A stretch of 64,000 nt of DNA from Schmidtea nova (Eukaryota): the NCBI GenBank assembly GCA_044892505.1, contig CM097883.1, forward strand, positions 256,060,001 to 256,124,000. The letters are read 5' to 3'. The stretch's first letter is position 1. Each line of letters starts with the position of its first letter. Below, in pieces: positions 11,633 through 36,179 of this stretch. Both the position numbers and the translations under genes were made by a program. The notes under the pieces were generated by a model. It ran no database searches, was not told the origin of the DNA, and saw only the letters and a list, made by a program, of their open reading frames with translations.

Positions 11633-12996
11633 CATGAATTTATAATATTTAATGCTTCTACCAAGGAATCACGGTTTGATACATTTATGATTTTTTATGA
11701 CTATGCAACTTAATTGAATATTAAATAATTGAGTTAAAAATAATTAAATCCAAAGATTTCTGAAAGTGAAAACTAAAAACAAGTGGCAATTGAAAGAATA
11801 CATATATATTATATAATTTCATATTAATAATTGTTTCTAAAAGGTGTAAATGCGAAAAAATTAATTAATTAAAAAATTATTCATTCCATCAATTATCATG
11901 ATGTAGAAAATAAAATTTCGTTTTTGACAGCCGATAGCTTAAAATTTGTTAAACTAGAAATATTATAGATTGTGTTGTCAGATTGATTTCGTATCCTTAA
12001 GAAAACTTGAGAAAAAAGCGAATCTCATTGTAATTATTTATGATAACTCTGAAAACAAATGAAATTTACTCGATTTTGATTGGCTCGTCTATAGGTAAAA
12101 TTTTGAATTAAAATTTGTGTAGTGAAGACTTAAAATTTCAATTTTGTTATGTATTAATTAAAGGAAATAGAACTGGTGAAATTCAACTTAAATTTTATTA
12201 GACAGTTTATTGTTATTGAAGTTCAAGAAATCAAGTCTGAAAAGTTGAAAATAAAATATTAAGAAATTGAGAATGTGGTTAAAATAATTTGTATAATTTT
12301 TGAATGAAAATAGTTTAAAGAAAAGTAAATTTGTTTCAAAATTAGAGCCAAATGTAAATTTTCTAATTGTTATAATAAAAGTAGTAAATTAAAACAAAAA
12401 AGTAAAATGAAAACTAATTATGTGAATATTATGAATGCTGGGATTATGGGTGGGTTTTAAGTAATTCAAATAAATTATTAATCATTAATTGAACGACTAT
12501 TGATGAGTACGTATACTAGGGATTTCCACGCCCATAACCATACATAACATGACTACTACACGCGTATGCCCTTGACTATTCCCCACTAGTCAAGTTGGTA
12601 CTGCATACGGTGGTGGAAAAATGATGGGCAGGTGAGCTTTGTTGCCAAAACTACTCCCCATTTATCTTCCCTCGGGTCCTTGCTGCCGATAGAAGGTCTT
12701 ACGCATTTACATTCTATGGATGTTCGTTTCTTACTGCATTTTATACTACATATCCTTATGATCTATCATACGCTTTTCCCAATGACTTTCCTTAATTGAT
12801 CTACAATGTAATTAATCAGTCTCGGCGTAGAAATGGTCGGTTTGAGAAAATTACGGATGCGATTTTCTATTTCGATGATTTCAGTGTTGTTAATTTATTT
12901 TATTTAGTAACCTCGCCCGATGAGAGACAAAATTTACACAGAAAATACTTTTATTAAAATACTAAAATCAGGTTGTTATTTTACATGGATATTTTC

Positions 12997-13581
12997 CTAA
13001 GCGAATTCCAGACTGATCTCCTGAATCAACTCCGCTTCGGTTAAGGAGTTCAAGTGGTGGATTTGTTCGTCCAGGCGCTTTGCAACTTCTCGGCGACGAC
13101 GACGCTGTCGCGATCCCATTCGGTGTTTCCGAAGCTGTTGGTTTATGACCGGTGCTGACGCTATTGTTCTCGGGGGATCACTGAGAAAAACAGGCAAATC
13201 TTCCGTTGTAAGAGAGGGGGCCATGATGATTCCCTCTTCCGTCCCGCAAGCGACATCTTGGTGAGTGCATTGTATCCAGCGCTGAGCTGTGATCGGCCGG
13301 ATTAGCGCTCGTAATTCGGAGTCGATGTAACTTCTTGTTACTGCATTTAGGCAATTTCGGAGTTCTCGCTGGACGGCATCTAGTTCCAATTTGGTTGTGG
13401 CCAGTGCTTCCTGCATTCGCTCCAGTTTTTTCGACTGGTCCTTCATTTGTTCGGGCGAGAACCACTTCGCTCTCAATTCATCGTTGGCGACCGTGAGTCG
13501 CTTGATCTGGCGCTGCTGGTCCCTCAACTTCCTCTCTTGGACTTGTCCCATGATTTTCTTGGAATTTTCTGAAGTCGGCAT
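12997..13581 (-). CDS. LTR-encoded ORF-B (194 aa): coiled-coil, Arg-rich motif; 3' LTR copy
   Basis: ATG-initiated GC-richer island between AT-rich spacers. TTCAG/ACAG acceptor-like sites precede the ATG and AATAAA follows. Contains RKHRMGSRQRRRRR. Confidence 0.6.
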   Translation of the reverse strand: MPTSENSKKIMGQVQERKLRDQQRQIKRLTVANDELRAKWFSPEQMKDQSKKLERMQEALATTKLELDAVQRELRNCLNAVTRSYIDSELRALIRPITAQRWIQCTHQDVACGTEEGIIMAPSLTTEDLPVFLSDPPRTIASAPVINQQLRKHRMGSRQRRRRREVAKRLDEQIHHLNSLTEAELIQEISLEFA

Positions 13582-13910
13582 GCTGTCTGAATATTATAAC
13601 GATAAATTCGCTGGAGGACCTATCAACAATGTTATTTTATTTAGTCTATTATTTACTATCATTAAACGAGATGCATACTAATGTTTTTAATTATTAAGTT
13701 TGTTGCCAAATTAATTAACTATCTAATTATTGAAGGCTCAAAAATTTTATTGAACTAATTTGAGATTATTAAATGAAATTCCTAATGACTATAACAACTA
13801 CAATACTGGATATTAATAAATCTACATTACGACACTATTAACAAAATGAGATACTTCAGAAATTTTTTAAAACATTTATTAAATTCAAAAATAGGTGGCC
13901 ATTGATTCAA

Positions 13911-14387
13911 TTATCCATCTTCGGTCATTTTTCCCCGATACGAAAATATCGATTTAATTTGCAAATTTGTGTGGATTCCTGGGCTATTGGACGAGGCTTG
14001 CTGGAAGCGGATTCTCTCAGCTTCTCGAAGGGGTCGTATGGCTGTATTGAACTTGAACCCCAATTCCTTGAAGGTAGAGGCTGGAATGAACCCCCAATAA
14101 ATGACACATTTCGGGAATCCTCCTTTGTCCAACATCAGGATGAACCAGGCGGCGTGCCATGATTCGAATTCCTCATCTGGAATGATTGGCCAACTAGCGC
14201 ATCCCCGGTACCATACGTGGTGCCGTGGATGGTCCCATACTGTAAATGGACAGGCGGTTTCGAGCTCTCGGCGCCATGCCCACATCTTTTGATGGATTTG
14301 CTGTAAAATCTCGAAAGGAGCCGGCTTTAATGGGCTAACTCGGGCTCGTTCTTGTCGTTTTTTGATAGTGTATCTATGCTTAGTCAT
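13911..14387 (-). CDS. LTR-encoded ORF-A (158 aa), Trp-rich, unknown function; 3' LTR copy
   Basis: ATG-initiated GC-richer island. TTCAG lies 15 nt upstream and AATAAA downstream. No family recognised. Confidence 0.55.
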   Translation of the reverse strand: MTKHRYTIKKRQERARVSPLKPAPFEILQQIHQKMWAWRRELETACPFTVWDHPRHHVWYRGCASWPIIPDEEFESWHAAWFILMLDKGGFPKCVIYWGFIPASTFKELGFKFNTAIRPLREAERIRFQQASSNSPGIHTNLQIKSIFSYRGKMTEDG

Positions 14388-15236
14388 GATTCCAAAACGA
14401 TGCTGAATTTTATAATAGTTACAATTTACATCAATAATTAATCATAGTAAATGTTATCTCTCATCGTGATATCTTTATTATTTGCCTACCCCTTAGACCT
14501 TAACTGAAATCAAGGGAAAACTGCTGTTCGTTACGGTATGCATTACTCTCGTATCTACCTAGATTTATCTGTTTACGATCAATATTATAGTCGAAAAATT
14601 GGTGATTTGTCTGCTTGGATTTTCAAAATATTGATGCCTCAAAACGGAAGCTCTCTCACGTCATGTATCCCTAGCTTATTCGAAAAACGCTCTTTTGTAT
14701 CAAATGCAGTCGACATAATTTTTCTAAGGTTTATTAGACGTTTGTTAAACAGCTGTGCTGTGGTGAGGGTGAAAAATTGTGCCTCCTCCCGGTTAACAAA
14801 TTCTTTCATATCTTTAAGCTTTATCAAAAAATTATCGTCCCCTCTGTAGCTAAAATGATCGGAAAATAATTCCCCGGATTTGTTGGGTGTCCCATGTGCA
14901 AATCTCAACCATTACTAATAAAATTATGTTTTGTTATTTATTACTTTACCGTGTGTGGAGCCCTCGAGCACCACGCCACGGACGGACACCTTGGGAACCT
15001 AAAGCTCCCAACGGCGCAAGATTAATAAGATAGTTTAAATAGTTCAAATATAACATAAATCATAATGAGATAACTAATAAATTATAATATGATAATGACA
15101 TATGAATACAACGATATCAAATAATAAACGCAAATATACCAAAAATACCTCAATTGAATTCTGAAAATTTATTGATCAAAATCGGTCTAAACGGTGATCG
15201 TCGTCGGGGCAATGTGCAATCTAATGTGAATTATTA

Positions 15237-15360
15237 GTCTGAACACAAGTCTAAGTTTTTTGCAAAGTCTAAATTTCAGTCTCAAACAAAGTCACAAGTC
15301 TAAAATCTATATTCTAACAAAGTCTACTAAAGTCAAGGATCTAGTCTACCAAAGTCTGAT
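15237..15360. promoter_or_regulatory. Cluster of ~10 (A/T/C)AGTC(T/A) motifs in the U3-side part of the LTR (also 40681-40804)
   Basis: AAGTCT-like hexamers recur every ~10-15 bp. An enhancer role is inferred only. Confidence 0.35.
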
Positions 15361-15782
15361 TTTATGAAAAATCTGATCAGTATTTATACTGATCAGTCGT
15401 GTCTAGACTGACCAATCAGGTTTGGCCAGTTTCATGGTGGTTTTTAATTATTGTTTTTGATTCTAATTAATTTTTATTTTTTAGATTGTATTCTTCCTTG
15501 GAGGTCCGGGTTTCAAAAACAATTATTCAATAACAAGTACTTTTATTTGGTTTTAATTATTATTATTTGTATTTTATTTGTTTTTAGATGTCTCCTGGGC
15601 CCGTTAATATCTATAAATTCATTTATTTTTATTTATAGCTTGTACTTAGTTATTCTATATTTTTACTATATTATTCCTTTCTTTTAATAAATAAATATTC
15701 CCCTTTTTACCTTATTTTTCTCTTTTTTGTTTTAATTAATCTACTTTTATTTCACTGTTCCCTCTATTTGGCTGGCCCAACA

Positions 15783-15985: not shown

Positions 15986-16558
15986 TTACACAAGCTCTTT
16001 GATTTCATGATTGGTATTGGATTGGATTGGGGTTCTTCCGCCGATTGTTCGTAGTTCGTAGTGGCTTTGGATTCGGTTTAGGTGTTTTCTCATTCGCTTT
16101 TGGGTTCTGATGTCTTGTATTGTTGTTCGATTCAGGATGACTTGTTTTTGTTTTAGGATCTTCACTCGGTATGATGTTATGAGGATTGTGATCGCGATAA
16201 TGGTCACGCTGAGTGCAAGGATTATTATAATTGCGATGATCCATTTTTCTTGATATTCTATCTCTGCTTGGGCTAAGCTTTTTATGGGTTCTCGACCTTC
16301 TTTTAGGGTTTTTCTGATTGTTTACAATTTGATTCGATGTTCATATAGGACCTGTTGAAATTTTTCATCGTTTGGGTTGTCTGATGTTATCTGTTGAAGT
16401 TGGGTGATTTCTTGTGTTGCTTCGCTGATTAGTTTATCTAGTTCTTGATAGGTTTTCTCGGGTAGGGCTCGTAGCTCCTTCTCTGTGAGTTGAAGATCTT
16501 CTCTTTGTAGGGTGATTGTTATTAGGTATAGGAATATCGGTATTCTGAGCTTTTTCAT
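15986..16558 (-). pseudogene. Accessory type-I membrane protein (~190 codons) with one in-frame TAA
   Basis: ORFs 16322-16558 and 15986-16207 share a frame: signal-like MKKLRIPIFLYLITITL, coiled-coil, RIKL*TIRK, TM WIIAIIIILALSVTIIAITILI, basic tail. Confidence 0.7.
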
Positions 16559-16639
16559 ACTGTTTCTTTACAGATAGGTCAATACAATTTGACACTACAT
16601 TTCATACAATTATTTACAGAAATATATTTTCCGCTTTAT

Positions 16640-17701
16640 TTACACAATCGTCTCGTTCGGTTCGTAGAAACCTTCGTCCTGAAGCTCTACTTGGTTCGTG
16701 GGGAGTGGTATCCAAACAACCCTGCTCCTCCACATTTCGACTTCATCTCGATACATGTGAGATATCTGGATCTCCTCGTCCAGCAAATATTCTAGGTAAT
16801 TTGCTTGTTCTGTTAATGTTTCTATTTGCTTCTCTAATTCGATTACTTTTGTCTTTTGTTCGTCTTCTTTCGTCATTTTTGTTACGGCTGCCGTTATACT
16901 TGCTTCTTTGGGTATTACTGATACTGTTACTCGTTTCTGTTTCAATTCTTCGTTTTCTTTCATCAGATTCGTTAAATTTTCCTCATAACTTTGTTTCTCT
17001 TCCTTTAACCTTTCTCTGGTTCTTTTTAGCTCTATTTTCTTCTGGGTAATCACTCCTTAGTAACCATTTATATCTCTCTTCATCTCTTCTTCTTTCTGAT
17101 TCCATATTCCGTTGAGCATAATCTTCAGTTGTTCTTGATTAGCTAGTTCTTCTCCCATTCTTTGAACTTGATAGGTTAGTCCTTTAATTTTCTTTGCTTG
17201 TTCCCGGATAAATTGCTGTCTCTTTGTATTCCATCTTTTATTCAACACTTCTTGGTGTATTTTCTGTTCTAACTCGTCTTTTAATTCGTCGATCTCTTTA
17301 TATAATTTCCAGTCATCACTATAAGCTGTCTTTTCTATTATTTCCCTAGCTTTTTCGTAAGATTCTTTCGCTTCTTTCTTCCAGTATCTTGCTTGTTCTG
17401 TAATCGAATATATCTTGTGTTCGGCTTCCATCTGCTGTCTGTCTCTTTCCTCTCGTCGCTCTTTCATCATTCTCTGGTAATATTCCTTTTGTTGTTGTAG
17501 CATTTTGTATACTTCTTCTATTTTTTCTCGATTTCTTTGACTTGATCTTTCCGCTTCTTTTAATAATTCGGCTTGTCTCTCTTTCTCCTCTTGCTTTCCA
17601 TAATATGCATTGACCCATATTTCAATCTGTTCTAGATGATCGCTAATCGCTTCTGCTTGATGCATCGTAATTTCCTGTAAGCATACTTCGATATTTCCCA
17701 T
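16640..17701 (-). CDS. Accessory long coiled-coil protein(s): 214 aa + 137 aa in one frame, separated by one TAA
   Basis: ...GGT TAC TAA GGA GTG ATT... at 17057-17059. E/K/Q/R heptad-rich throughout. Poly-T tract and TTATAG precede the ATG. Confidence 0.7.
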
Positions 17702-17817
17702 TGCTATAATTTCAGAAAAAAAAAAATTTTAATCGGTTTATATATCAGTTATTTTTGTTTATATAATAATTTTTGGGTATTTAACTGTACATATTATTTA
17801 CATGATCACTTTTCTTG

Positions 17818-19200
17818 TTACGTCAACCATCCTTTTCTATCCGCTTTCTCATTCCTTTCCATTTCTATGTATAGGGTGTCTGCATATAATCGTTCCCATA
17901 GGCTTTCTTTTGTTATAAACATCGGTTCTCCCGCTGCTAATCCACATTCTGTGGTTGGTTTCTCGCTCGTACTCGCATGTTTCTCTGTCTCAAAGAATTT
18001 TTCCACTGGTTTTGTTACACTTCTGATTCTTACAATGACTCCTACTTTCAAGGGCCATTCTACTAGGTCGTCGTATTCCCCTTTACATAGCGAGAAAAAT
18101 ATTGACACATGTGTTCCTCGTCCTCTTCCGTCTCCATTTGGGTATAGCTTCAATCTCACTTTAGCTCCGTTTCTCCATAAATAAAATGGTGGGCTTATTA
18201 CTGCTGTTTTCGTCATATTTCTGGCCTCTGTTAATTTGTCTCTAAAATCTGTCACTTTCCACACATATGGTGCGATTGGTAACTTTTCCTCGGTATCCTG
18301 GGTGAGTTTGTTGTACTGGATTTTCATTCCTTTAGCCAATTCTTCGATAGCTTTTATCTTTCCCTCCATCTTTTCTCGTGTTAGTTCGAATTGCTCTCTG
18401 GTTTCCAACAGTAGGTTTACCATTATCTTGTGTGACTCTATTTCTCTTTCTAATTTTGTGATTGTTTGTTCGGTTTCTTTTGTTGCTTCGTTTGTCATTT
18501 CCGCATGCTTTAGCAATGCTTCCTCCAGATGTTGTTTCATGGTTTGTTGCGTTCTTTTCTCCATACATCCCTGTTTGTTATAAGGACATTCCCTTGGTTT
18601 CTCCGTGCACACTTTCCAATGTTCTTGTAATTTTACTTCTACCGTTATCTCGCATTCGTTTGAACATATTCCTACATATTGTCTACATACTTTCTCCTCT
18701 TTTACATTCAGGTGTTCTTCTTCGATCTTTCTCCTCGTTTCTCGAGTTCCACAATATTCGCATAGACTTTCCTCTTCTTTACATTCATCTTTGTGCTGCT
18801 CTTTATTCTTTATAGTTATCTTTTGTTGGCATTTGTTACATTCAGTTCTCTTCTCTTCGCAGTTCTCCAGATGGTTCTCGAGATCGCGTATTTGTCCTTG
18901 CCATATACATGGTTGATTTATACATTCGGTTTTCGTGTTCATGATTTCTCTCTGAGTTGCTCTATCTGGTCCGGTTTCTTTGAATTTTATTTGTCCTTCT
19001 TTGCATTCTGGACATTCTGGTGGTCTTTTCATACTTAACTCGTGTATGCATTTGGTACATACTCTGCATCCGCATAGGGTTTGTCTTGGTTTCAATATTA
19101 TGTTTTTACAATTTACACAAGTGAGTCTCTGACTCCATTTCCTGTTCTCGGCTCTCAAAATTTCGATTATCCGCTCTTCGGCTTTTCCTTCTGTATTCAT
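17818..19200 (-). CDS. TRAF: Intronless TRAF-family protein (RING, TRAF zinc fingers, coiled-coil, MATH/TRAF-C), 460 aa
   Basis: CVNC...CGCRVCTKC...CPEC RING; CINQPCIWQGQIRDLENHLENC and ECPYNKQGC zinc fingers; YVWKVTDF...SPPFY...LKLYPNGDGRGRGTHVSIFF...GEYDDLVEWP MATH signature. Confidence 0.95.
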   Translation of the reverse strand: MNTEGKAEERIIEILRAENRKWSQRLTCVNCKNIILKPRQTLCGCRVCTKCIHELSMKRPPECPECKEGQIKFKETGPDRATQREIMNTKTECINQPCIWQGQIRDLENHLENCEEKRTECNKCQQKITIKNKEQHKDECKEEESLCEYCGTRETRRKIEEEHLNVKEEKVCRQYVGICSNECEITVEVKLQEHWKVCTEKPRECPYNKQGCMEKRTQQTMKQHLEEALLKHAEMTNEATKETEQTITKLEREIESHKIMVNLLLETREQFELTREKMEGKIKAIEELAKGMKIQYNKLTQDTEEKLPIAPYVWKVTDFRDKLTEARNMTKTAVISPPFYLWRNGAKVRLKLYPNGDGRGRGTHVSIFFSLCKGEYDDLVEWPLKVGVIVRIRSVTKPVEKFFETEKHASTSEKPTTECGLAAGEPMFITKESLWERLYADTLYIEMERNEKADRKGWLT

Positions 19201-19291
19201 TCTACAATGATATATACACTTGATTTGTTATCTATTTTTTGATTTTTCTTGTTTTTGTTTTTACATATTTACAATTTTTCGCTTTATTTAT

Positions 19292-19648
19292 CTACGGCCC
19301 GTTTGTTGAATCTGGTTCTGGGTCATTTTCTGATCTGTTTATTGCCCAATTTGTCCATCCATCCTCTGCTTCTTCTGTCTCTCCCATTGTTAAACGGTCT
19401 ATCTCTATTGCTTGTCTCTGATTTATGTCGCTCATCACTTGATTCTCTCTGGTAAGTTGCGTTATCAATCTCTGTTGCTCCTCGATTCTGTGGAGTTGTT
19501 CAAAACTATTATTATAACTTTCGGATAACAAATTCTGTTTCTCAATTAACTGATTTTGTAGTGAGTTGATTGTTCGTATTAACATGTCACACTGGGCTTT
19601 CCATCGCATAGCCATAGTAGTTTCTGCTATTTCTTCCTGTTCGTTCAT
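19292..19648 (-). CDS. Accessory coiled-coil protein (118 aa)
   Basis: ATG preceded by TTTAG-AAA; Q/E-rich heptads; element-like codon usage. Confidence 0.6.
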   Translation of the reverse strand: MNEQEEIAETTMAMRWKAQCDMLIRTINSLQNQLIEKQNLLSESYNNSFEQLHRIEEQQRLITQLTRENQVMSDINQRQAIEIDRLTMGETEEAEDGWTNWAINRSENDPEPDSTNGP

Positions 19649-19773
19649 TTTCTAAATTATATACATTAATCGTTTTCTCGATTTCTCTTTTTATATTTTT
19701 ATAATATCGATACCCATACTATTACGGTAATGCATTGTTATTTACACTATTATTTACAGTCATATCCCGCCTC

Positions 19774-22700
19774 CTATATCACCATCACTGTCTTTCCTTC
19801 GTATCGCTCTTCATCTTCTATTTGTCTCCAAAATTCTTTACCTTTCGTCCTCCTTTGGAATTCTTTCTGTACTTCTTCCGGTAATTCTATACTGTAGTTC
19901 ATAATCTTTATATCTGGCCAATGTGTTATTGGTTTCTTGTTGAATACATCATATATCCATATTATTAATAATACTGTTATTACTGGAATAGTTGCTGCTA
20001 GTATTCCTAGACCAAATAGTTCTCTAACTTGTTTGTTTACGTCCATCTTCGTAATTTCACTCTGGTTAATCATTGGTCCGTATTGTCCCTTTAGTTTAGT
20101 TAGTAGTTGTTCTCGTTCTTGTTGTTTTCTTTTAACTTCTTTAATTACTTCTTCCGGCGTCCATCTTGCGTAAGGGTCTATTACTACTTGTTCTGCGTCC
20201 ATTCGTTTCGTTGTCTGACTTAATTCTTTAAATTCGAGTTTTCTCACTTTCCCTTTGGACGTTGAGTTTACCGGTGTGTAGTACGTTTCGCATCTTTCCT
20301 GCTGATTTCCCAGTATGTCCGTCTTTTCTATCGCACATATCTCGTATTCGCTATTGAATTTCAGATTTCTGATACTTATTTCCTCTTTTCCTTTTACGTT
20401 TTCGCAGTATCGTGGCTGTCTTTCTTTTTGTTCCTGAACTACTGCCCAACATATTTCTAACGTTTTATTGTCTATTCTCCATAGTATAAGAGTTGCTGTA
20501 GTATTCTTTTCGGTTTTTATTTGTATTTCTTGGTTTTTCTGTTGTCCATTAGGTTTAAAAGTAGTGGTATACCTCGTTTTTCCTTTGTTCCGTTGTCTTC
20601 TGCTTTTTCGCGTTGTCTTTCCAATTCTTGTTCTGGTGGGTGTTTTATATATTTTGCATTCCAGTTCATTTACTGTTATTTTGTCGCTCTTCCTGATCAG
20701 GCATATTTCGTACGTTTGATTACTTTCTAACCCTTCTATCTGTATTGTGGTTGTTCCTCTGTTTGTTCGACATTGCGGCGGTGTATTCTGGTTTGTTTTC
20801 TTTTCCTGCTTCTTCCAGCATACGCCTTTGACGTCCGGTTCTATTCCGGTTAACTCTAACATTATAGTTGTTCTCCGTTTGGTGCGTTTATTTCTTCTTC
20901 CTCGTCGTATGAACTTTATTGTTTCCCCAGGTTGAAATGTTTTACAAATTGTCGTTCCTTTCTTGTGTCTTTCTTTTTCTAGTAAACATAGTTCATACGT
21001 CCTGTCTGCTTTTACTTCTGATATCTTGGTTACTTTATTTGTTTTCCTTTTCCGACTCGTCTTTATTTCGCTTACGCCAATTTCTTCGTTGCTTCTGGCC
21101 CAACACTTTGGGTTGGTGTTTTGGGTGTCGTTCATCTCTGTTACTGCCATTGTGTCAATGTCTATCCCTTCTTCTAACCGTTTTAACATTGTTAATATGA
21201 GTGCTAAACATAGTAATTCTGTTTGGTAGGTCACTCTTTCAGTTTCATTTGTGGTTACTCTTACTTCGGGCCTGTCTATGGTAATTTGTATAGTTGGCGT
21301 TGTTCGTCTGTCTATTGTCTGAGGTTTCTTGTTTTTTGTTCCTTGTGTCTCTGTTCTTCCACACTTTCCTACGACATAGTCTCCTTTGGATGACTGCTGT
21401 ACTGTTATGGTTACTTTGGGTGTTAGGTAATTTGCACATGCAATTGTCTTATGTGATCTCGGATCCTTTGGTTTCCGAACGGTGCACATTCTGTACCAAG
21501 TATCTAGCTCTAGGTCATCGATCTCTATGATTTCTTGTTCGTATTCTGAGATCCTGCAATCCATTGGACTATTTTGTCCCGAGATTTTGTCCTTTTTTGA
21601 CCAACATACTCGTTCGATTCCTTTTGCGTTTCCAATTTGTATTGTCGCTCTTTCTTCACATATCATTCCTTGAGTGGGACTAATTAAGGTCATGATTACC
21701 GTTAGTAATAATAGTTCTGGTTTAAAGAATGGGTTTATTGTTTGTTTGTAGCCTGTTCTTTTTACTTCGTTTTTATTTTTATAGTTGTTGTTTCTTTGTT
21801 TCCCAAATTCATTTTTCTTATCATTTTTCTCTGTGTCCCTTCCTTTCTCTTCACTGTCCTCTTTATCTGATAACTCATGATCCTCTGGATTTTCTCGAGT
21901 ACTATCGTCGTCGTTTCCTGTATTGTCGCCTCCCCTTTGGTCGTTGAAAATGTCGTCCTCGACATTAATTGCTTCTATCATTTTTTCATACGTTATGGTT
22001 GTGAGTATACTTGCTTCGTATTCTTGTGTTTCTGCCTGCTTAGGTATTTCCTTATCGGTTAATTTACAATCTAGAATCTCTTTCTTGGCTTTTATCCAAT
22101 TATTGAGGTACGTTTTCATTAGTTCTTTCCATTTGTCCGTACGTTCTGTTTCCTTTGGGTTGTTTGTGAATCGTAAATCTTTTCTTCTCATGAAGATGTC
22201 TATTATCTTTGGCCATTTGTTTATTATTAATGCACACTTTATATATAAATTCTGGCCTTGTTCCATGAACTCGTTGATCCTGAATGCTGGTTCATTGGTG
22301 TTTGGGTTCATCCAATTGAGTATTGCTTCGGTTAGTTCAGCGTTATGCATCATGAAATGTACGCTAGCTTTTTTAACCGTCCTTGTAAGATATTCTATTT
22401 CCTCCTGATTTGTGATTGTTTTTATAAAATTTATCACCTCCCAATTGTGCGCTAACAACGCTACGTCTAGTATTGAGCTGTCTTTGTTAGTTCTTCCCAT
22501 GAGTCCTGCACCTGCTTCGTACAGTTCCTGTAACACTCGGGTTTTTGTGTTCGCTCTTGCTGCGAATATCATGAGGGTATCTCCCTTTTTATCTTTCCTG
22601 TTCATGTCACTTCCGCAATCTTGCATCAACCGTGCAATTTCGACTACCCTCCTATCTTTTCCTGCTCGTAAGGCTCTATGTATTGGCAATACTCCATTCT

Positions 22701-25700
22701 TTGTTAATAAGAAAGTCACTGGCATTTCTCTTTTTATGATCATCATATCGTTTTCATTGTAAGTTCCTTCCGCATATGCGCGTACCTTTTCCACAATTGC
22801 TCCGAGTATCTCCAGTGTATGTTTAGAATTTTCGAATTCTGGTAATAGTTCTTTTGCTTTGTCCTGTATCGCATCTAACCTTTCTTGATATGGTACTTCT
22901 GCGCTGAAAAGTGGTGTAAATTTCCTTTTGCTTTCTCTTTCCTTTCGACATAGGAATTGTTTGCATTTTTCGGGGTGGTTTAATATGTCTATTAGTTTGT
23001 CATACTCCTCCTCCACCGTTTTGTATTTGTCTTGAAAATTGGATATATCTTTGTAAGTTATCGACTTGGTTAGCGATTTTGCACACCATTCCCTAATATT
23101 ACTGAATAATGCTTCTTTTTCACTTTCGAATTTATACTCCTCTTTGTTTTTGGAAATTGTGATATTTCTTCTGTCCAATACTATTAACAGTGTTTTCTGA
23201 TCACAAACTAATTTTAATAGGAATTGTAATAACGCGTTTTGTCCTTCACTGTATACCTCGTTTATATTTAATACCCATGTATCATTTTCGGATCTTTTCC
23301 ACTTTATTAGCTTGCGTATTGTTTTGCAGTTACCGATTTTTTTTGCCTCCTTGATTATATCACCTTTGATCAGTTCGTCTATTTCCCAAGTGGCCTTCTC
23401 GATTATTTGTTTGAGCATTATCTGATTTGAGCTCCATATTGCGTGATTCAAGACTGTTTTGTTTTCTCTATCGCGTTCCGTCCAGTTGAAATCGGCATTT
23501 ATCAAAAGGTCTATTATTGCTTTATCCGATTTGTAGATGGCTGCTACCATTAATGGTGTTTCTTGTTCGCTATTCCCAAAACCAAGGTGTTGGTTTGTTT
23601 CCTTAGCGATTTTTAGAAATTCTTTTACTCTCTCTACTTCTCCCCATTTTATGGCGTTATGTAATGCTGGTTGTCCTCCTATGTCTTCTAGTGAAAGTAT
23701 TTCTGGAATTTTTTCCAGTAGTTCTGAAATGACTGGTTTTGTTGGTAGTCCCCTTGCGTAATCACTAATTATCGACTGAATATCTCTTAATATATCGTCT
23801 CTGACATGCCATTTTCCCATTATTTCTCTGGCTTTTAGTACAATTTCCTTGTTTCTTTTTTCTTGTTGCTTGTTTTCTGCTTCGGTACTTTCATCGGTTG
23901 CTCTGAGCATATTTATCCTGGCTGTCTGGGATCTTGTTATTATTCGTTCTTCTGGCACTGTGGTTATTGTTTTTGGTACTTTCTTACATCTGCATGTATT
24001 AACGTATATTGGTCGTATCAATGGTCGATTAACAAGTTTTACCTTCACATTGTTTTCCTTTTTGTATATAACTTCGTAAGGGCCTTTTCCTGGTCGTTGT
24101 AGTTTTTTAACGGTTCCTGGTATTATTTCTGGGGTTTCTATCATTACCCAATCTCCGGGTTTAAGATCATTTGTTTTAACATTTTTCTTTTGATCGTGTA
24201 GGTCCTTGTAACTTTCTTGATAAAACTTTATGTTTAGTTCTGCTGTCTTCCATATCTCTTGCATTCGTTCTTTGAATTTGGTGACGTAATCATCTTCCTC
24301 CATATATTGAGACAAGGGTGGTTGATATTCAAGATCTATTGGCATATTGCATTCCCTTCCATACATTAATTGAAATGGACTCAATTTTGTTGCTGCGTGT
24401 ATCGACATTCGGTATGCCATTAGACATAGCTTTACGTATTCATCCCAATCTGTTTGGTGTTTGCTTACATAATTGGATAACATTCGAATCAATGTGCCGT
24501 TAAATCTTTCCGTTTGTCCGTTGGTTTGCGGATGATATGGTGACGTTCGTAATTTGGCTATTCTGAAGTAATTTGTCACTTCATCTAGTATTTCGCTCAT
24601 AAAATTTGTTCCTTGATCTGTTAGTATTTGTTTCGGGGTTCCGTATCGACAACATATTTCCTCTACTAAAATTCTTGCTACGGTCTTTGCTTTTTGATCC
24701 GGCATCGCAAATGCTTCAGGGAATTTAGTCAAATAATCCGTTATTACCAATATATATTGATTCCCGTTTAAACTTTCTGGCAATGGTCCTATTACATCCA
24801 TCGCAATGGTAGTCATTGGTTCCGCTGGTATTGGCATGGGTTTTAAAGGATTTTTCCATTTCTTCCCACTATCCTTTCTTGTGGCACAAGTTAAACAGTT
24901 CTTTATCCATTCCTTTACGTCTTCGTCCATTGTTGGCCAATAATATTTTTGTCTCATGCGATCTAATGTTTTCTTATTGGACATGTGTCCTCCCAACTTT
25001 CCGTCGTGGTATTGAGTTATTATCTCTTTTCGTCTATTACCTGGCAGACACATTAATCGTTTCTCTCCATCTCGTATTAATAACCATCCTTTTTCTATTG
25101 TGTATCGATGTTGGTATTTCCTCATGTGTTCTTTTAACTCCGCATTGTCTTTGAATACATCCATATTCCGTGAGCTTAGGAATTCTATGATGGGTCTTAG
25201 TTCTTTATCCTCTTGCTGATCTTTCTTCAACTCACTGAAATCCAAATCCTCTGCTATCATTATGCATATTCTTTGCACTTCTGGGTCTGTTAGTTCTGGA
25301 AACGTTAATCTTGACATGCAATCTGCGTTGGCATTCGCTTTTCCTGATTTGAATTTTATATCTGGTGAATATTCTTGTAATTGCATCGCCCATCTCATTA
25401 ATCTGCTGGATGTTTCCTTATGTTGTCCTAGCCATACAAGTGGTTGATGATCTGTGGTTATGCATATAACGTGTCCCCATAATAGATATTTAAAGTGTTT
25501 TATTGCTAATATTATTGCCAATGCTTCTCTTTCCGTTACTGAATAATTCTTCTCGTGTTTCTTGAATGTTCTGCTATAATATCCGATTACCCGCTCTTTT
25601 CCCTCGTCATCATATTGTCCTAACACTGCTCCTGCTGCATATCCACTTGCGTCGGTTGCGAGTAAAAATGGCTTCTTGAAATCCGGGTGAACCAATATTG

Positions 25701-25767
25701 GTGCAGTTATTAACTTATCTCGTAATGTTTCGAAGGCTGTTTGTTGTTCGCTTCCCCATATGAACAT
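19774..25767 (-). CDS. pol: Polyprotein 3' part: RT connection, RNase H, integrase, ankyrin modules, FN3-like ectodomain, TM
   Basis: ATDASGYAAGAVLGQ (RNase H). HDGKLGGH...CLTC, MDVIGP, TDQG, GQTERFN and GKGPY (integrase). Continues the upstream ORF after a 1-nt deletion. Confidence 0.95.
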   Translation of the reverse strand: MFIWGSEQQTAFETLRDKLITAPILVHPDFKKPFLLATDASGYAAGAVLGQYDDEGKERVIGYYSRTFKKHEKNYSVTEREALAIILAIKHFKYLLWGHVICITTDHQPLVWLGQHKETSSRLMRWAMQLQEYSPDIKFKSGKANANADCMSRLTFPELTDPEVQRICIMIAEDLDFSELKKDQQEDKELRPIIEFLSSRNMDVFKDNAELKEHMRKYQHRYTIEKGWLLIRDGEKRLMCLPGNRRKEIITQYHDGKLGGHMSNKKTLDRMRQKYYWPTMDEDVKEWIKNCLTCATRKDSGKKWKNPLKPMPIPAEPMTTIAMDVIGPLPESLNGNQYILVITDYLTKFPEAFAMPDQKAKTVARILVEEICCRYGTPKQILTDQGTNFMSEILDEVTNYFRIAKLRTSPYHPQTNGQTERFNGTLIRMLSNYVSKHQTDWDEYVKLCLMAYRMSIHAATKLSPFQLMYGRECNMPIDLEYQPPLSQYMEEDDYVTKFKERMQEIWKTAELNIKFYQESYKDLHDQKKNVKTNDLKPGDWVMIETPEIIPGTVKKLQRPGKGPYEVIYKKENNVKVKLVNRPLIRPIYVNTCRCKKVPKTITTVPEERIITRSQTARINMLRATDESTEAENKQQEKRNKEIVLKAREIMGKWHVRDDILRDIQSIISDYARGLPTKPVISELLEKIPEILSLEDIGGQPALHNAIKWGEVERVKEFLKIAKETNQHLGFGNSEQETPLMVAAIYKSDKAIIDLLINADFNWTERDRENKTVLNHAIWSSNQIMLKQIIEKATWEIDELIKGDIIKEAKKIGNCKTIRKLIKWKRSENDTWVLNINEVYSEGQNALLQFLLKLVCDQKTLLIVLDRRNITISKNKEEYKFESEKEALFSNIREWCAKSLTKSITYKDISNFQDKYKTVEEEYDKLIDILNHPEKCKQFLCRKERESKRKFTPLFSAEVPYQERLDAIQDKAKELLPEFENSKHTLEILGAIVEKVRAYAEGTYNENDMMIIKREMPVTFLLTKNGVLPIHRALRAGKDRRVVEIARLMQDCGSDMNRKDKKGDTLMIFAARANTKTRVLQELYEAGAGLMGRTNKDSSILDVALLAHNWEVINFIKTITNQEEIEYLTRTVKKASVHFMMHNAELTEAILNWMNPNTNEPAFRINEFMEQGQNLYIKCALIINKWPKIIDIFMRRKDLRFTNNPKETERTDKWKELMKTYLNNWIKAKKEILDCKLTDKEIPKQAETQEYEASILTTITYEKMIEAINVEDDIFNDQRGGDNTGNDDDSTRENPEDHELSDKEDSEEKGRDTEKNDKKNEFGKQRNNNYKNKNEVKRTGYKQTINPFFKPELLLLTVIMTLISPTQGMICEERATIQIGNAKGIERVCWSKKDKISGQNSPMDCRISEYEQEIIEIDDLELDTWYRMCTVRKPKDPRSHKTIACANYLTPKVTITVQQSSKGDYVVGKCGRTETQGTKNKKPQTIDRRTTPTIQITIDRPEVRVTTNETERVTYQTELLCLALILTMLKRLEEGIDIDTMAVTEMNDTQNTNPKCWARSNEEIGVSEIKTSRKRKTNKVTKISEVKADRTYELCLLEKERHKKGTTICKTFQPGETIKFIRRGRRNKRTKRRTTIMLELTGIEPDVKGVCWKKQEKKTNQNTPPQCRTNRGTTTIQIEGLESNQTYEICLIRKSDKITVNELECKIYKTPTRTRIGKTTRKSRRQRNKGKTRYTTTFKPNGQQKNQEIQIKTEKNTTATLILWRIDNKTLEICWAVVQEQKERQPRYCENVKGKEEISIRNLKFNSEYEICAIEKTDILGNQQERCETYYTPVNSTSKGKVRKLEFKELSQTTKRMDAEQVVIDPYARWTPEEVIKEVKRKQQEREQLLTKLKGQYGPMINQSEITKMDVNKQVRELFGLGILAATIPVITVLLIIWIYDVFNKKPITHWPDIKIMNYSIELPEEVQKEFQRRTKGKEFWRQIEDEERYEGKTVMVI
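19950..21720 (-). other. C-terminal membrane-protein module of the polyprotein: signal peptide, 4 FN3-like repeats, polybasic sites, TM
   Basis: PELLLLTVIMTLISPTQG|MICEE. Repeats share C-W...(I)xxL...Y-x-[IML]-C...C-x-x-[YF]-x-[TP]-P. RNKRTKRR at ~20872-20907. Sequons NET, NDT, NQT, NTT, NST, NQS. TM LFGLGILAATIPVITVLLIIWI. Confidence 0.65.
22420..23680 (-). other. Two ankyrin-repeat modules (~3 repeats each) after integrase
   Basis: GQPALHNAI, QETPLMVAA, ENKTVLNHAI (~23400-23680); GVLPIHRAL, KGDTLMIFAA, KDSSILDVAL (~22420-22705). Confidence 0.85.
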
Positions 25768-28700
25768 ACGTCTTTCTTTACTAGCTCCTGGATTGGTTTT
25801 GCAATTCCTGCGTAATCCTTTATGAATTTTCTATAGTAACCGCATAATCCGAGAAATTCTTGGATCTGCGTTATCGTCTTTGGTACTGGACATTCTTTTA
25901 CTTTATCAATGTTTCTGGGATCTGGTTCCTTTCCTTTTGCGGACACAATATGTCCTAAGAATGTCACTTTCTCTTTTGCCCAATCGCATTTCGATGGTTT
26001 GAGCTTGAGTTTCCATTGTCTCAATCTCACAAATACATCTCTGATATCTTGGATGTGTTGTTCAAATGTGCTTGAGTAGATTAGTAGGTCATCAATGTAA
26101 ACCATGCATTGTTTTATGCCGTGGGTGACAAAATTCATACATCTTTGAAATGATGCTGGTGCATTGGTTAGTCCAAATGGCATTTTCCTAAATTGGTACA
26201 AGTCTCTTCCGATAGTGAAAGCAGTTTTCTCTTTGTCTTCCTCTTTCATTTTAATTTGCCAGTATCCGCTTTTCAAATCCAATGATGTAAAATATGCCGC
26301 TCCTTGTAATGTCAATAACATCTCGTTGATGTCTGGTAATGGGTATGTATCCCTTTTTGTTACCGCATTTAATCTCCGATAATCAATACAAAACCGTTGT
26401 GTTCCGTCTTTCTTTTTCACCATTACAACTGGGAATTGCCACGGTGAGCAGCTTGGTTCAATTACTTCTGCGTCTAGCATTTTCTGTACTTCTGCTTCTG
26501 CTACTGATTTTTGCGCTTCAGCTAACTTGTATGGTCTTAACGCAATAGGCGTTTTGTCTGTTAGTGGAATCGTATGTAGTGTGACGTCGCATGTCCCTAG
26601 ATCTAAATCGGATGCTGCGAATATGTCTTTATATTCCATCAGTAACCTTTCTAGCTGTTTCTTTTGATCCTCATTTAGTAGTTGGCTATCAATGTTCCAG
26701 GTGGGTTCCTCCTCTTTTACTCCTTCTTTTATTGGTATTTCGATATCTATCATTGGAGTTAGTTTACCTAGTCTTTCATTTTCATAAATTATTTTATCCT
26801 CTTCATCGAAATTTACTACATTTATTGGGATTTCTCCGTTGTCATTCGCACTCACTAATCCCCTTGCCATTGGCAACGACTTTCTCTTTTCAAATCTTTT
26901 ACTGGGTTCAAAAATCATGTCACCTTCTATTGTAGGGTCTATTTTTACGAAGCATATTTTCTCTCTCCGTGCTGGTACGATTATTTGTTTCGAACTTGTT
27001 ACTTTTGCTTCTATTGCGCATATCTGTCCTGTCCTGTCCTTTAGTCTCATTGTTCCGAGATCAATAACTATTTCTTTAAATAATGCTGGCATTAAATCTG
27101 TGCCTATAATGCATGGTACGCTTAGTGCTGGTATTACTGCTACGTACGTTTCGATTTCCGTGTTTTGATGTTTTATCTTTACCCACCATCTTCCGGCAAC
27201 TTCTACTACTTCTTTACTGCATGCTATTACGTGAACGTTGGTTCTCTCGATATCCCGTCTTTGTTCTTGTGGTATCCATTTTATATCTATTGCTGAGATA
27301 TTTGCTCCTGTATCAATCATCGCTTCTATTTCCCTTCCGTTAATTTCGATTGTTGTAGTTAATACCGGACCGGTGTTTGATGACATTACTGCAATTGTAT
27401 GTGAGTCTCCTTGCGGATCTACGCTTCTGCACCGTCTCGTTCTATAGTCTTCTGGTATCATAGGATATATGTTTGTCATCGGCATCATTTGCATTGTATT
27501 TTGTCTCATCCCTGGTGTTGGTTCTTGGTACATGGTTGGTGGGGGTGCGTAACACTTCCACATTTCCGCTGGATTCTTTTCGACATACTGTGGTACTTGA
27601 TTTTTAAATACTTGACCTCCTTCGTTATCATCATCATCGTCGTCACTGGAATCGTCTTGGGTTCTGTACCCTTTCATTCTTTCCCATAGTCCTTTTCTCT
27701 CTTTCTTTAGTTGTTGTCTTGCTTGCTCGTTATTCATTATCTTTTTAAATTTTCGTCCCACCTCTTCATCGGTTCCTTTCATTTTTGCCAGTATTTTTAG
27801 GAGTCTCTTTATTCGGTGAATATCTTTTGAATGACCGTGTAATACCATTGTTTTAGCCAAAAATGGTAAGAATCCTACCACCAATTTCCAATTTACTTTC
27901 TTTTCTCTTTTATAGATGTCAAAACAGGCTAACATTTGCGTTATTATTACCCGTATTATTTGTATAATTAGTATAACACCAAGTATTCCTGCCATCATTT
28001 GTCCAAATATTAAAAATCTTCCCCACATCGCTTTCATCATGTTTTCCGTTGCCTTCTTAAAGTGGGCTGGTGACAATAATAATTCGTAATTTGGTCCACC
28101 TTGGTAATTTGTTCCTCCTGTTATTGTTACAATGCTGGATAACACCGCTTCCATTCTTGCTGGAAATAGTATGTTTTGTCTTGCTGCTTCTAAGTCTTTT
28201 GCGCTATAGAATCCCATATTACTTACATCTACGTCTTTAAATTTTCGTCCTTTTGATAGTTGCATCAATTCAAATTCCCTTGGTGCTGGTACCTCTGTTC
28301 TTGACGGAAACATAACCCAATTCCCGTCTGGTTTTTGGTATAGTGGTCCATATGCGTTGCTGCAATTGAAAGGATTTGGTTCGAAGCTTATTGGATTTAT
28401 GATTCTTGTCACTGGTTGCACATATCTTACTTTCCCTTTATATTCGATTTCTAGTTCGTTAGTACACTGACCTGGTTGTAATTTTGTCATTGTCGCTACC
28501 TTCGCGTTTGTCTTTTTACATATGTATACATACATGACCTCTCCGACTACCCTTCCAAAATGACCTTCTCTCAATGGTAATAATGGCATTGCACTATCAG
28601 GGTTTGTGATTGCTACCGCTAGTTTTGTCTTTAATATTTCCCTATTTAATATGCAATCGTTGTTAATTAAATCGTAATACACTTTTTGTAGTGACGCTTG

Positions 28701-31700
28701 TCCTCTATGGAACAGAAAATCCATTTTATTGTTCATGTAAAGGTGTAATTTAACATCGTTCGTGTGCACTTTGCGTTTCGCACTAGGTACTTCTTGTTTT
28801 GATACAAAAATGCCGGGGTAGTTGGTTTCCAACATAGCTACTCCGCATTTCAAGGCTGTTTTTCCTTTTACAAACCTCATTCCGATATCTGCATCTGAGG
28901 TAATTAGTACCGTTGGTGTATTTCTCATTTTAATTTGTTTTTCTTGTGTTCGGGTTTCAATCTTTTTCTCTCCTCGTACTGTGTCTTGAAGTATTTTTCC
29001 TCTTGCTACCTCGTCTTCTTCTTCCTCTTGGAAGGTTTTCCCTTGTATCTCATCGAATTCTGCTTCCTTTAACAGTTGTAGTTGACATTCCTTTCCTCGT
29101 ATCTGGTAGGTTAAGGTTGACATACCGGTTTGGCAAGTGTTTGACTCGATTTTGCACATGGGCAGGGTTTTCATTTCTCCCGTTGTTGGATCGAAGAATG
29201 CCTCGTACGTTTTTAATTCTACTGTATAGGTATCTATTACCACTAGGTTTGTTGCTGCTACTCCGAATATTGGATATGTTGCTCCTTGGCAGTACCCTTC
29301 TCCTCCCGTAATAGCTCCTGCTACATAATAAGTTTGTTGCAATATCACTCCCGTTTTTCCTCTTATCTTTACTCTATCTCTAGTCTCTACTTCTCCATGT
29401 TTAAATAATTTTTCGCAGTCTTCTCCTTGCAGCATTACCGATTCTCTTTCCGTTCCTGGCATCACGATTGCTGAATAATGGCGGTGTCCACAATAAAAAG
29501 CAAATCTGGTTTTATAAACTTTGCATTCCCTGACCATTGTTCTTATCAGTTCAGCTTCCTGATATACGTGGTATAATTGTCTCTTTTTTAATGTTTTTAA
29601 CTCCGTTGGGGTTGCGTCCTTACATTGTTCTGTCCCTCGTAGTGAATATTTCTCACCTAATGCCATTTGATCGCAATCGAATACTTCAAATGCTGTTGCG
29701 CCGTCAGTACTAATCATCCATATTAACATCATCATAATAATGGAACTCAAGTTTAGTGACGATTTCCCGTTTCCTGTTCCCGACTTTTCCTTTTCCAATT
29801 CTCCCAATATCTCTTCGAATTTCCTTTTCATATTTTTGGCTTGGTTTTTCTTTTGGTTCGTTTTTGTGAATGTCTCCCATCCTCCTTTACTGATGATGTA
29901 CGGTTCTATTTCCTTCTCTATAATTTTGGCTGTATTCTTTATATGTCTTTCAAGTGCTGTGGGTTTCAGTCGACCTCTACTCAGTGTCAGCAGATTGTAA
30001 ATGGTGTATGCCATAGCTATTAAATATTTGTTATCCGTCTCTGCTCCTTCCGTTAACTTCTTTATCAACATCGTGGTTCCTTGCCAATCTAGGTGGTTTG
30101 ACCTTGTCTTCTCTTTTATTAATTCTGGTAGGATTGGTGCGATGGCGCTATGCAGTGATTTCGCCCTTTCGCTTATTTCGTTTATTCTCCACCATTTCTT
30201 TAATTCCGGATCGATTATTGCCAGTATTTCTATTAACATCTTTGATATCCATTCTTCGCCTTGGTATGTTTGTGTTGTTTCTTTTTCTTTCGTTTCGGCT
30301 ATTTTATTTAGTTTCTTTAGACACAAATCCCATTGATCCCGTCTTTTTTCCTCTCTTGATTTTATCACTACATTTGCTGGATCTATCTTGGGTCTACCTC
30401 TAGGTCGTTTATCCATTGTCGTGCCCATTTCTACTAATCTTGTTTCTCGTCCAGTTTCTTCTGTGACGTCTCTTGGTTCATTGGCTCTTTCTTCTAACCA
30501 TCTTTCCATTTCTTGTGTGAATTGTACATTTTCTACATTTGCCCTCCTTGCTTCCTCTTCTGCTATTTCATTTACTTCTTCGATGATTATTTCTTGTTCA
30601 ACTTCATCTTCGGTGTTGGTTACCGGTATTGCTGTTGGTAATTCTTGAATTCTTTCGAAAATATTATCATCTTTCTCTTTTGTTAGCTCTATTAACTCCT
30701 CTAACATATCATCGCTATCTGTAAAAATTTCGTCTACATCGTATGGTTCTGGTGGTGTTCTTTCTCTTGTCTCTCTTGGTGTTGTTCTAGCTTGTTCTGA
30801 GCTTGTTCCTGGAGTCATTACCGATTTCATTGGGCTCGGCGTACTCATACTTCCTTTTGGTTTCTTTTCCTCTTTCAATTTTAATGGTTGGCCTGCTATT
30901 GCTGCCACTGTCAATGTATTTGCGATATCTAATTGCGCTGGCGTTATTCCAATTTCTAAGCTGTTATCTAATGATCGTCCTTGGTGTTGTAAATGGAATG
31001 GTGGTTCATATCTCAATTTCTTTTTAATGTCTCGAACTTTCTCCGCTATCCCTACCCAAAACTCTTCTTTTTCCTGGTTCGGATATACTATTCTTAGGTG
31101 TACTTTCTGTGGCGATTCCTGCGAGAATTCCTGGTTTCTCCATTTTTTAATTACGTGATCCAATTGTTCTGGACACCACTCGTTAACTCTTTTGTATTCG
31201 GCGATTGCTTTTGCTACTTTACGCAAGCATGTTATGTCTTCTCCATTAACTACGAAAAAATCTGCTAGACCTTTTACTACTTTTCTCTTGCCGTGCGCAT
31301 TGGTTTTTAATATTTCGACAAATTCCTCTGTTTTTTGTTTCTCTCTTTCCAACCACATGGTTGCCGTTTCTGGTCCGTCTAAATCTGCTGGCATGGCTTT
31401 TCTTGTTACCATACAAACCCTTCCCGTTTCCGGTTTGTGATCGTCTTCTATGCCTATTTCGTATTCCTCTTCGTATTCGCCTGCTTTTGGTTCCCAACAT
31501 TTTCCTCGTTCGTTCCATTGTTTTTCTACAGGTGTTCGTAATCGTCTGTTGAGATTGAGTTCTTCTAATACATCTTCCCATTCTGGCCAAATCCGCCAAT
31601 TTCGATAAATGTCTACTATTTGTTGTAATTTATGCACAACTTCTTTTTGTCGTTCCCGTTCTCTTTTCTCATCCTTAGCAGTTTCTCTTGGTTTATCGTC

Positions 31701-35162: not shown

Positions 35163-35716
35163 CGGGATTACTTTTGTATACTCAATTTTCCTGTCTTATC
35201 GTGTTCCGATTCTTTTCTTCCTTGGTTGCTTGGTTTGGTTTGATTGATTTATCTAAAATACAAATGTCACTTCAACGATACTCTATTGTTATCGTTGCGC
35301 TTTTATTCTCTTTTTACGGGACTTCTCATTGCTGGGTTTCTATTATTTTTCCCCATTCCCAGATTCCCCTTTATTTAAGTCTATTTAAATTATCTATATA
35401 CTAGTCACAATTATCTATTTAGTCATAACAATTATCTATCGGTTATTCAAATACATCAATTATTTTTCCCGCGGTCTCCCAATTTATTTGTCGTTCGAAC
35501 GCTCTAATTCCCTGAGTCATTTGACTCGATTATTATTTTATCATCTCTTTATCTTTCTCTCTGCTAGCCTCTAATTATTAATTCTGCCGGTCTTTCCGGT
35601 CAGCTCCTATTTCTCAATTCTACTTGCATGCATTATTTTAGGTCGCATAATCAGCTTTACTCGCATTTCTCAATTCCTGGTGCGCACTATTCTCATTATC
35701 GTCGACGATCACAACT

Positions 35717-35930
35717 CTGGGCCTATATTCCCTCTGTTGTTATTTCTTATCACTTGCAACCCTGGGCCTATATTCCCTCCGTTGCTACTCAAACGATTGT
35801 AACCCTGGGCTTATATTCCCTCCGTTACTATCTTCCTTTAATTTTAAATAATTGCAACCCTGGGCCTATATTCCCTCCGTTGCTACTCAACAATTGTAAC
35901 CCTGGGCCTATATTCCCTCCGTTACTATAT
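35717..35930. repeat. Leader array 1: five copies of a ~27-nt core
   Basis: CTGGGCCTATATTCCCTCCGTT(G/A)CTA-like cores start at 35717, 35762, 35805, 35860 and 35902. Confidence 0.85.
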
Positions 35931-35968
35931 ATCCGGATATCCCTATTGGCTCCTTTGGCCTCTAATTA

Positions 35969-36136
35969 ATATCAATTATCTCAAATGGCTCTTATGGCCT
36001 CAAATTCATATCTCAATTATCTCAAATGGCTCTATTGGCCTTAAATTCATATCTCAATTATCTCAAATGGCTCTATTGGCCTTAAATCATATCTCAATTA
36101 TCTCAAATGGCTCTATTGGCCTTAAATCGTATCTCT
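35969..36136. repeat. Leader array 2: four ~41-bp tandem units
   Basis: ATATCTCAATTATCTCAAATGGCTCTATTGGCCTTAAAT(T)C repeated. Confidence 0.9.
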
Positions 36137-36179
36137 CAATAACGCCTAGCTAGGTCATTCAATATGGCTCTTTGGCCTC

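Follow-up and report, generated by a model that had tools for sequence, protein, structure and literature searches.

A full-length TRAF gene carried by a Burro-type LTR retroelement in Schmidtea nova

Giant gypsy-like LTR retroelements of dugesiid planarians carry domains that resemble host regulators. In a 2019 review (PMC6431247), Burro elements are described with MATH_TRAF_C, BIR, BCL2-like and ankyrin cargo and with an env gene between gag and pol, and an element of Dugesia tigrina is described with its MATH domain on a separate upstream accessory ORF. Its authors put forward the idea that Burro elements interfere with apoptosis and ubiquitin pathways of the host, and asked for this to be tested. 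MATH/TRAF cargo in these elements is already published (PMC6431247), and for Schmidtea mediterranea there are published expansions of the TRAF family, whose members act in immune and cell-death signalling (PMC6109357, PMC7586133, PMC8807557). What, then, is a complete and intact TRAF gene doing between the LTRs of an element in the Schmidtea nova genome, where did it come from, and how does it bear on the TRAF expansion?

Here, we analyse a 64,000-nucleotide stretch of S. nova DNA (contig CM097883.1, hereafter the window). The original prediction, made from the letters of this stretch, was that an intronless TRAF is retroelement cargo captured via mRNA, that its altered RING might mark a decoy or a rewired ligase, and that element-borne copies could account for part of the apparent TRAF expansion of planarians. 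The literature consulted, including PMC11410931, did not describe a full-length TRAF with a RING in Burro elements, nor selection acting on such a gene, nor how it bears on the number of host TRAFs, and Grohme 2018 and Jurka 2007 could hold more. A shared origin of a full-length TRAF and a MATH domain within a polyprotein was likewise not found in print.

A TRAF gene within a Burro-type retroelement

The window contains a whole LTR retroelement of 28,791 bp on the minus strand (12436–41226), bounded by TG...CA and flanked by a TGAA target-site duplication at 12432–12435 and 41227–41230. Its 5' LTR (37880–41226, minus strand) and 3' LTR (12436–15782, minus strand) are each 3,347 bp long and differ at three sites (99.9% identity), indicating a young insertion. 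Directly internal to the 5' LTR lies a primer-binding-site-like stretch (37856–37873, minus strand) that we take to resemble a tRNA-Pro primer-binding site; ARAGORN found no tRNA in the window. Tandem repeats with units of about 41–45 and 61 bp occupy the 5' leader region of the element at 35700–36600.

Read in the sense of the element, a 153-aa accessory ORF with a C-terminal IAP/MDM2-type RING (37054–37515, minus strand; zf-C3HC4_3, E 1.4e-11) is followed by a 3,008-aa polyprotein (25710–34736, minus strand) comprising Gag with a CCHC knuckle, a fusion glycoprotein (env), protease and reverse transcriptase (RT), then by a 1,997-aa frame (19774–25767, minus strand) encoding RNase H, integrase and ankyrin repeats and, towards its C-terminus, hydrophobic segments, and finally by four accessory genes. 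The env match (Monjiviricetes_fusion, E 2.3e-68) lies in frame after gag and before RVP and RVT_1, with RNase H and then integrase beyond. The polyprotein also contains weak BCL2-like (Bcl-2, E 0.15) and weak ubiquitin-like (Ubiquitin_4, E 0.068) stretches. No BIR domain was found among the ten proteins scanned, the upstream RING-only ORF included, and the Pfam profile scan gave no dUTPase match.

Because no BIR matched and the BCL2-like and ubiquitin-like matches are weak, we call the element Burro-type and not Burro1 itself, an assignment made by anatomy against the published Burro description. It resembles Burro1–4 and GYPSM1, gypsy-like elements of dugesiid planarians (PMC6431247), in being an LTR element of near 30 kb with very long LTRs (28.8 kb with 3.3-kb LTRs, where the largest Burro elements are put at "over 30 kb"), with env between gag and protease in one polyprotein and with ankyrin and MATH cargo. 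It differs in lacking a detected BIR. It also holds a whole TRAF downstream of pol in a four-gene cassette, whereas the MATH domains of the published elements lie in ORF1 or in an upstream ORF, the review (PMC6431247) leaving unstated whether the D. tigrina ORF has a RING.

The accessory cassette (15986–19773) consists of four minus-strand genes separated by spacers of about 80–125 bases. Its first gene encodes 118 aa of no known family (19292–19648) and its second is the TRAF (17818–19200); the third is coiled-coil-rich (16640–17701; 353 aa in 15 of 20 sampled copies), and the fourth encodes about 190 aa with hydrophobic segments (15986–16558). In the window copy, stop codons interrupt the third and fourth genes (17057–17059 and about 16322–16324) and a frame break falls between RT and RNase H (25710–25767), and the TRAF is intact. 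The break and the two stops occur despite the near-identical LTRs, and mutation or assembly error could both explain them; there is no N inside the element (12436–41226).

The TRAF is a single 460-aa frame with neither stops nor introns, and translation, Pfam profiles, alignment to PDB chains and a fold search together confirmed the RING–zinc finger–coiled coil–MATH architecture predicted for it. By alignment to solved TRAF chains, a C4C4 RING spans residues 28–66 (19003–19119, minus strand, as for the domains that follow). TRAF-type zinc fingers cover about residues 93–228 (18517–18924), the AlphaFold model predicts a coiled-coil helix at residues 229–302 (18295–18516), and a MATH/TRAF-C domain with a remodelled receptor groove occupies residues 312–447 (17860–18267). 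Where solved TRAFs read CGHRFC, the element protein has CGCRVC (residues 43–48), so that the usual RING histidine is indeed replaced.

The MATH domain scored above the Pfam cut-off (MATH_2, E 6.8e-21; TRAF-mep_MATH, E 2e-18), and zf-TRAF (E 7.6e-5) and the weakly matching RING (zf-C3HC4_4, E 0.003; TRAF3_RING, E 0.011) fell under it. Against solved chains, residues 11–156 aligned to the RING–zinc finger regions of TRAF6, TRAF5 and TRAF2 with E of 2.6e-11 to 7e-10, and the MATH domain aligned to TRAF5, TRAF3 and TRAF2 with E of about 1e-21. The AlphaFold model, built on a 24-row alignment, reached a mean pLDDT of 87.6 with a pTM of 0.41, so the arrangement of the domains is unsure. It places a single helix before MATH at the TRAF-N position, with pLDDT above 90 over most of the helix, and TRAF domains head the list of its fold matches in the PDB. 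Human TRAF2, TRAF3 and TRAF5 (PDB 1ca9, 1kzz, 4gjh, 3knv and 7l3l) are the best solved matches to the MATH domain and good matches to the RING–zinc finger region. The element TRAF departs from them in its C4C4 rather than C3HC4 RING, in a changed serine triad, F456 and C469, and in a shorter coiled coil.

How the TRAF might be expressed is suggested by the sequence around its start. A TAG one base before the ATG (19202–19204, minus strand) is a candidate splice acceptor, and its TTGTAG context is kept in all three element families described below. A YAG ending zero to three bases before the ATG, an interval chosen after inspecting the sequences, precedes all five accessory ORFs, compared with 74 of 602 ATGs in the element; in the sister families, two other cassette genes follow the pattern less neatly. 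Together with the spacers of about 100 bases, these YAGs suggest splicing or trans-splicing to each cassette gene. The motif TGTAAATA occurs six times in the element sense strand, always within or at the edge of the cassette spacers, and not once antisense, and AATAAA follows two of the cassette stops. The cassette as a whole has the look of operon-style RNA processing. In four sequence sets (contigs, their kind unrecorded, from one study), depth was highest on the LTR and no acceptor joint appeared among the matches listed; Burro1 RNA is reported from S. mediterranea tissues after smedwi-2 knock-down (PMC8532177).

Maintenance and origin of the cargo

A protein search of the S. nova genome with the TRAF scored 92 matches at 78–100% identity, comprising the window family and its nearest sister. 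These are the best-scoring matches and hence biased to intact copies: 76 are near full length without stops, 12 contain stops and 4 are partial. At the 20 loci whose flanks were inspected, the downstream cassette genes and at least part of the 118-aa upstream gene were present in every case, and pol sequence lay upstream of the TRAF in 17. Approached from the other side, each of the 40 best integrase matches has a TRAF within 10 kb in the correct orientation, and in 38 cases the offset is the standard one. The gene also occupies this slot in sister families whose TRAFs are 79% and 52% identical, in the more distant of them at loci L036, L038, L039, L047 and L048. An exact pattern in which the RING Cys codon was left open returned 70 genomic matches, all with Cys. 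The copy numbers are lower bounds, as genome searches score best matches.

These linkages bear out the prediction that the TRAF is retroelement cargo, the gene being present in all 40 of the best integrase copies rather than missing from other members of the family, and we regard it as very probably functional cargo of the element. At three loci (L012, L014 and L015) no pol lies beside the cassette and the TRAF and downstream genes are kept; these are possibly non-autonomous derivatives.

We compared TRAF copies with the window copy for selection, and since every pair includes that copy the pairs are not independent. The dN/dS ratio was 0.13–0.14 in all five copies of the 79% family (dS about 0.8), 0.13–0.15 in three copies of the 52% family, for which dS is saturated, and 0.21–0.33 in four middle copies. 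Eight of eleven close copies, those with at least six synonymous differences, gave 0.11–0.21; one of the remaining three gave 1.81 (one synonymous and seven non-synonymous differences) and two had non-synonymous changes only. The dN/dS comparison proposed with the original prediction thus returned low values in most copies (about 0.11–0.33), which indicates that the TRAF is under purifying selection in the element. The 118-aa accessory ORF gave 0.10–0.16 against the 79% family.

Between the two nearest families the RING is the fastest-evolving TRAF domain (dN 0.25 versus 0.06 for MATH). Across 23 element copies, all 27 zinc ligands are kept in 19 and one is lost in each of the other 4, and all eight RING ligands are kept in 22. 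The frequency of A at third codon positions is 0.50 in the TRAF, 0.50–0.51 in gag and pol of the element and 0.30–0.35 in host TRAFs (n=6). Outside elements, the best full-length matches are about 25–32% identical, and a protein homologue search returned only 13 TRAFs, all distant. From the dN/dS values, the kept zinc ligands, the element-like codons and the remoteness of outside matches, we infer that the capture is old and that the gene has been maintained.

Two explanations that would make the TRAF something other than a working part of the element can be weighed on this evidence. A recent neutral retrocopy, picked up as a passenger by template switching, would account for the absence of introns; we consider it extremely improbable, since it is contradicted by a dN/dS of about 0.13 over a dS of 0.8 and by codon use that matches the element, and the best full-length non-element matches reach about 25–32% identity. 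Alternatively, the gene could be kept for the benefit of the host, with domesticated copies adding to the TRAF repertoire, as the three loci that retain the cassette after losing pol might suggest. This, too, is quite improbable: selection is visible between whole element families, the TRAF travels with pol in 40 of 40 copies, the copies are dispersed and young, and the TRAF of one pol-less copy contains two stops.

Trees place the element genes together. In a MATH tree of 66 rows, which includes a subset of the element copies, all 13 element rows form one clade (support 98/88), among them a MATH domain fused into the polyprotein of a sister element. In this sister (L037 and L040) the MATH is part of a polyprotein of roughly 5,000 aa, and the element is present in at least 150 copies at 95% identity or more, many of which have long open frames. 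Neither of the two loci examined showed a remnant of a RING or zinc finger beside the polyprotein MATH. The simplest reading would be one capture, followed by reduction to MATH in one lineage. A quick full-length tree of 42 rows puts the element TRAFs among planarian C4C4 TRAFs on a weak backbone (78). In the MATH tree alone, and not in the full-length one, the host gene L035 groups as sister of the element clade (93/85), and as judged from these trees no donor gene can be named. The quick tree places P0035, a 452-aa C4C4 TRAF of a different assembly, next to the element clade as its sister (SH-aLRT 95, on a long branch); it may be element cargo in another flatworm.

The predicted route of capture, via mRNA, is plausible for a retroelement, but the argument from missing introns does not carry it: eight host TRAFs (L021, L023, L024, L026, L035, L041, L042 and L043) also encode everything between RING and MATH in a single open frame, so the lack of introns is no proof of an mRNA intermediate.

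Host TRAFs and the family expansion

Planarian TRAF2-like host genes (Dugesia japonica TRAF-2-like A; Dendrocoelum lacteum TRAF-2, -4 and -5) share the architecture of the element TRAF, including the short coiled coil and a CGCRxC RING, and several are single-frame in the S. nova genome, as it is. The element TRAF is set apart from them by identities of about 26–36%, A-rich codons, loss of the proline of the F-x-P-D motif, mobility and the presence of many copies.

A RING match was found at 20 of 33 sampled host-type loci, and in all 20 a cysteine stands at the histidine position, as it does in the three named Dendrocoelum TRAFs. This rules out the His-to-Cys change as specific to the element, and the comparison indicates that it was inherited from the host TRAF clade. 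A TRAF4-like host region (L066:5295 with L033, probably one gene to judge from position) keeps a canonical CGHRLC RING, so the cysteine variant marks the expanded clade and not all TRAFs of the animal. The suggestion that the altered RING betrays a decoy does not survive these data, as every one of the 20 host TRAF-like RINGs has this cysteine, and E3 activity is possible for C4C4 RINGs (PMC4024746).

Host-type loci account for 73 of the best 150 MATH matches, and hence number at least 73. Of these, 63 fall in one 50-Mb region (G000:C2:404–456 Mb), many in tandem, with some arrays repeating at 4–5 kb. The element cassette genes were absent within the 6–10 kb around each of the 33 sampled host loci, five of which have nearby pol matches to other retroelements (24–38%). 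At eleven sampled loci of the cluster, RING and MATH lie in separate frames 29–4,494 bases apart, consistent with introns. Given the concentration of host matches in one region, their tandem arrangement and the absence of cassette genes from the sampled loci, the genomic layout indicates that the host TRAF expansion is real and not an artefact.

Element-borne MATH loci are themselves numerous. We found 92 in the window family and its nearest sister, about 75 in the third family (five of them checked by flanks) and at least 150 of the polyprotein type, more than the at least 73 host-type loci among those found. Their number agrees with the idea that element copies could swell the apparent expansion, but it does not explain away the tandem host cluster, which lies outside these elements. 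Because the element-borne loci outnumber the host TRAF loci found, planarian TRAF counts, RNAi results and expression results should be compared with the positions of elements, the genuine host expansion notwithstanding. Neither MATH nor PF00917 appears in the six text supplement files of PMC6109357, and a MATH table may be in another file.

Host TRAF sequence has also moved by another path. A piece of about 670 bp of the host TRAF L023, covering the RING and first zinc fingers, is found in a dispersed repeat of at least 0.9 kb. The repeat has ten matches, 95–98% identical in the four checked (L061–L064, at G000:C3:97177311, C1:328629795, C2:263423997 and C1:542737605), and appears to reflect another capture, of recent date, in which a small mobile element took up the sequence independently.

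Proposed role of the element TRAF

Two surfaces bear on what the protein might do. In TRAF6, I72 and L74 are needed for Ubc13 binding (PMC5702613). These residues align to N30 and K32 of the element TRAF, and the two positions are polar in 23 of 23 element copies (N/K, K/N or K/K) and in several host TRAFs as well; the TRAF6-type Ile/Leu pair is missing here, as it is in human TRAF2. Lacking this hydrophobic pair, the element TRAF is likelier to serve as a scaffold than as a strong K63 ligase.

The second surface is the receptor groove of the MATH domain. TRAF2 groove numbers were mapped onto the element protein by motif, in a numbering that we assume to hold. At the hot spots taken from PMC6125299, the Px(Q/E)E groove is not conserved: F410, F447 and Y395 are kept, R393 is replaced by K, F456 by S and C469 by E, and the serine triad SSS (S453–455) by AST. 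Where F-x-P-D has its proline, each of the three element families has Thr or Ile, compared with Pro in 19 of the 21 other rows; at the F456 position, two element families have Ser and all 21 other rows have Phe or Tyr. Yet another groove (HEAY) is seen in the 52% family, as compatible with drift as with retargeting. Several host TRAFs likewise lack an I72-type residue and the serine triad, and host planarian TRAFs deviate at several groove sites, so the changes are not all element-specific.

The polar E2 positions, the changed groove and the precedent that TRAFs with weak E2 binding can still work via heterodimers (PMC5702613) favour an adaptor. On balance we lean, with restrained confidence, towards the view that the conserved accessory TRAF acts as an adaptor in host TRAF signalling that favours cell survival or dampens defence. 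An intact planarian-type C4C4-RING TRAF would have been captured long ago by a giant env-bearing Burro-type element, and its translation would now start on a separate RNA, made by splicing or trans-splicing to the AG directly before its ATG. The protein could then join host TRAF oligomers through its coiled coil or RING, while its MATH groove, unlike that of the host, would bind some different partner, and it may work beside the RING-only, BCL2-like and ankyrin cargo of the element. The outcome would be a host cell kept alive or a defence dampened. We think the element TRAF probably pro-survival because Schmidtea cells need host TRAFs to survive (PMC7586133) and the rest of the cargo looks like regulators of survival.

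A related account, which we consider rather unlikely, is that the TRAF is kept as a true viral accessory gene by a lineage of giant env-bearing retroelements. Its operon-like cassette would be cut by spliced-leader or alternative splicing, its retargeted MATH would antagonise planarian stress or innate-immune signalling, and the sister lineage would have shrunk the capture to a polyprotein MATH.

The same two surfaces could be read in favour of catalysis. The element TRAF might be an active ubiquitin ligase whose changed MATH groove selects a restriction factor of the host for ubiquitination, such as a protein of silencing or RNA sensing. In favour are the full set of eight RING ligands in 22 of 23 copies, the activity known to be possible for C4C4 RINGs (PMC4024746), and a groove unlike the host's; against this, the Ubc13-binding positions are polar (N/K, K/N, K/K) and, of the TRAF domains, the RING has changed fastest between the two nearest families (dN 0.25 versus 0.06 for MATH). 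We judge a ligase of this kind unlikely.

Virus-like agents with TRAF genes of their own offer a further comparison. The Megalocytivirus TRAF (ISKNV ORF111L; PMC3352826) and TRAF-like genes of other large DNA viruses likewise represent host TRAFs in a virus-like agent. These are independent captures with 18–22% identity, and ORF111L is reported to be pro-apoptotic, binding TRADD and triggering caspase-8 apoptosis (PMC3352826). By analogy, the element TRAF might promote cell death or lysis and so aid particle exit, a reading that gains from the rank of iridovirus TRAFs among the top viral fold matches and from the fusion glycoprotein of the element. We nevertheless find it improbable, as an element that integrates needs the cell lineage it has entered to live on, and its remaining cargo is of the kind that regulates survival. 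A whole TRAF in its own frame, under purifying selection and with close host counterparts, gives a practical handle on the idea of Burro interference with the host.

Elsewhere in the window, a 524-aa ORF with DUF4371 and a C17orf113-type zinc finger (2178–3752) is probably a piece of a hAT-like transposase. Terminal-inverted-repeat elements at 50159–52420 and 52944–54001, the first with masked stretches, are probably non-autonomous DNA transposons.
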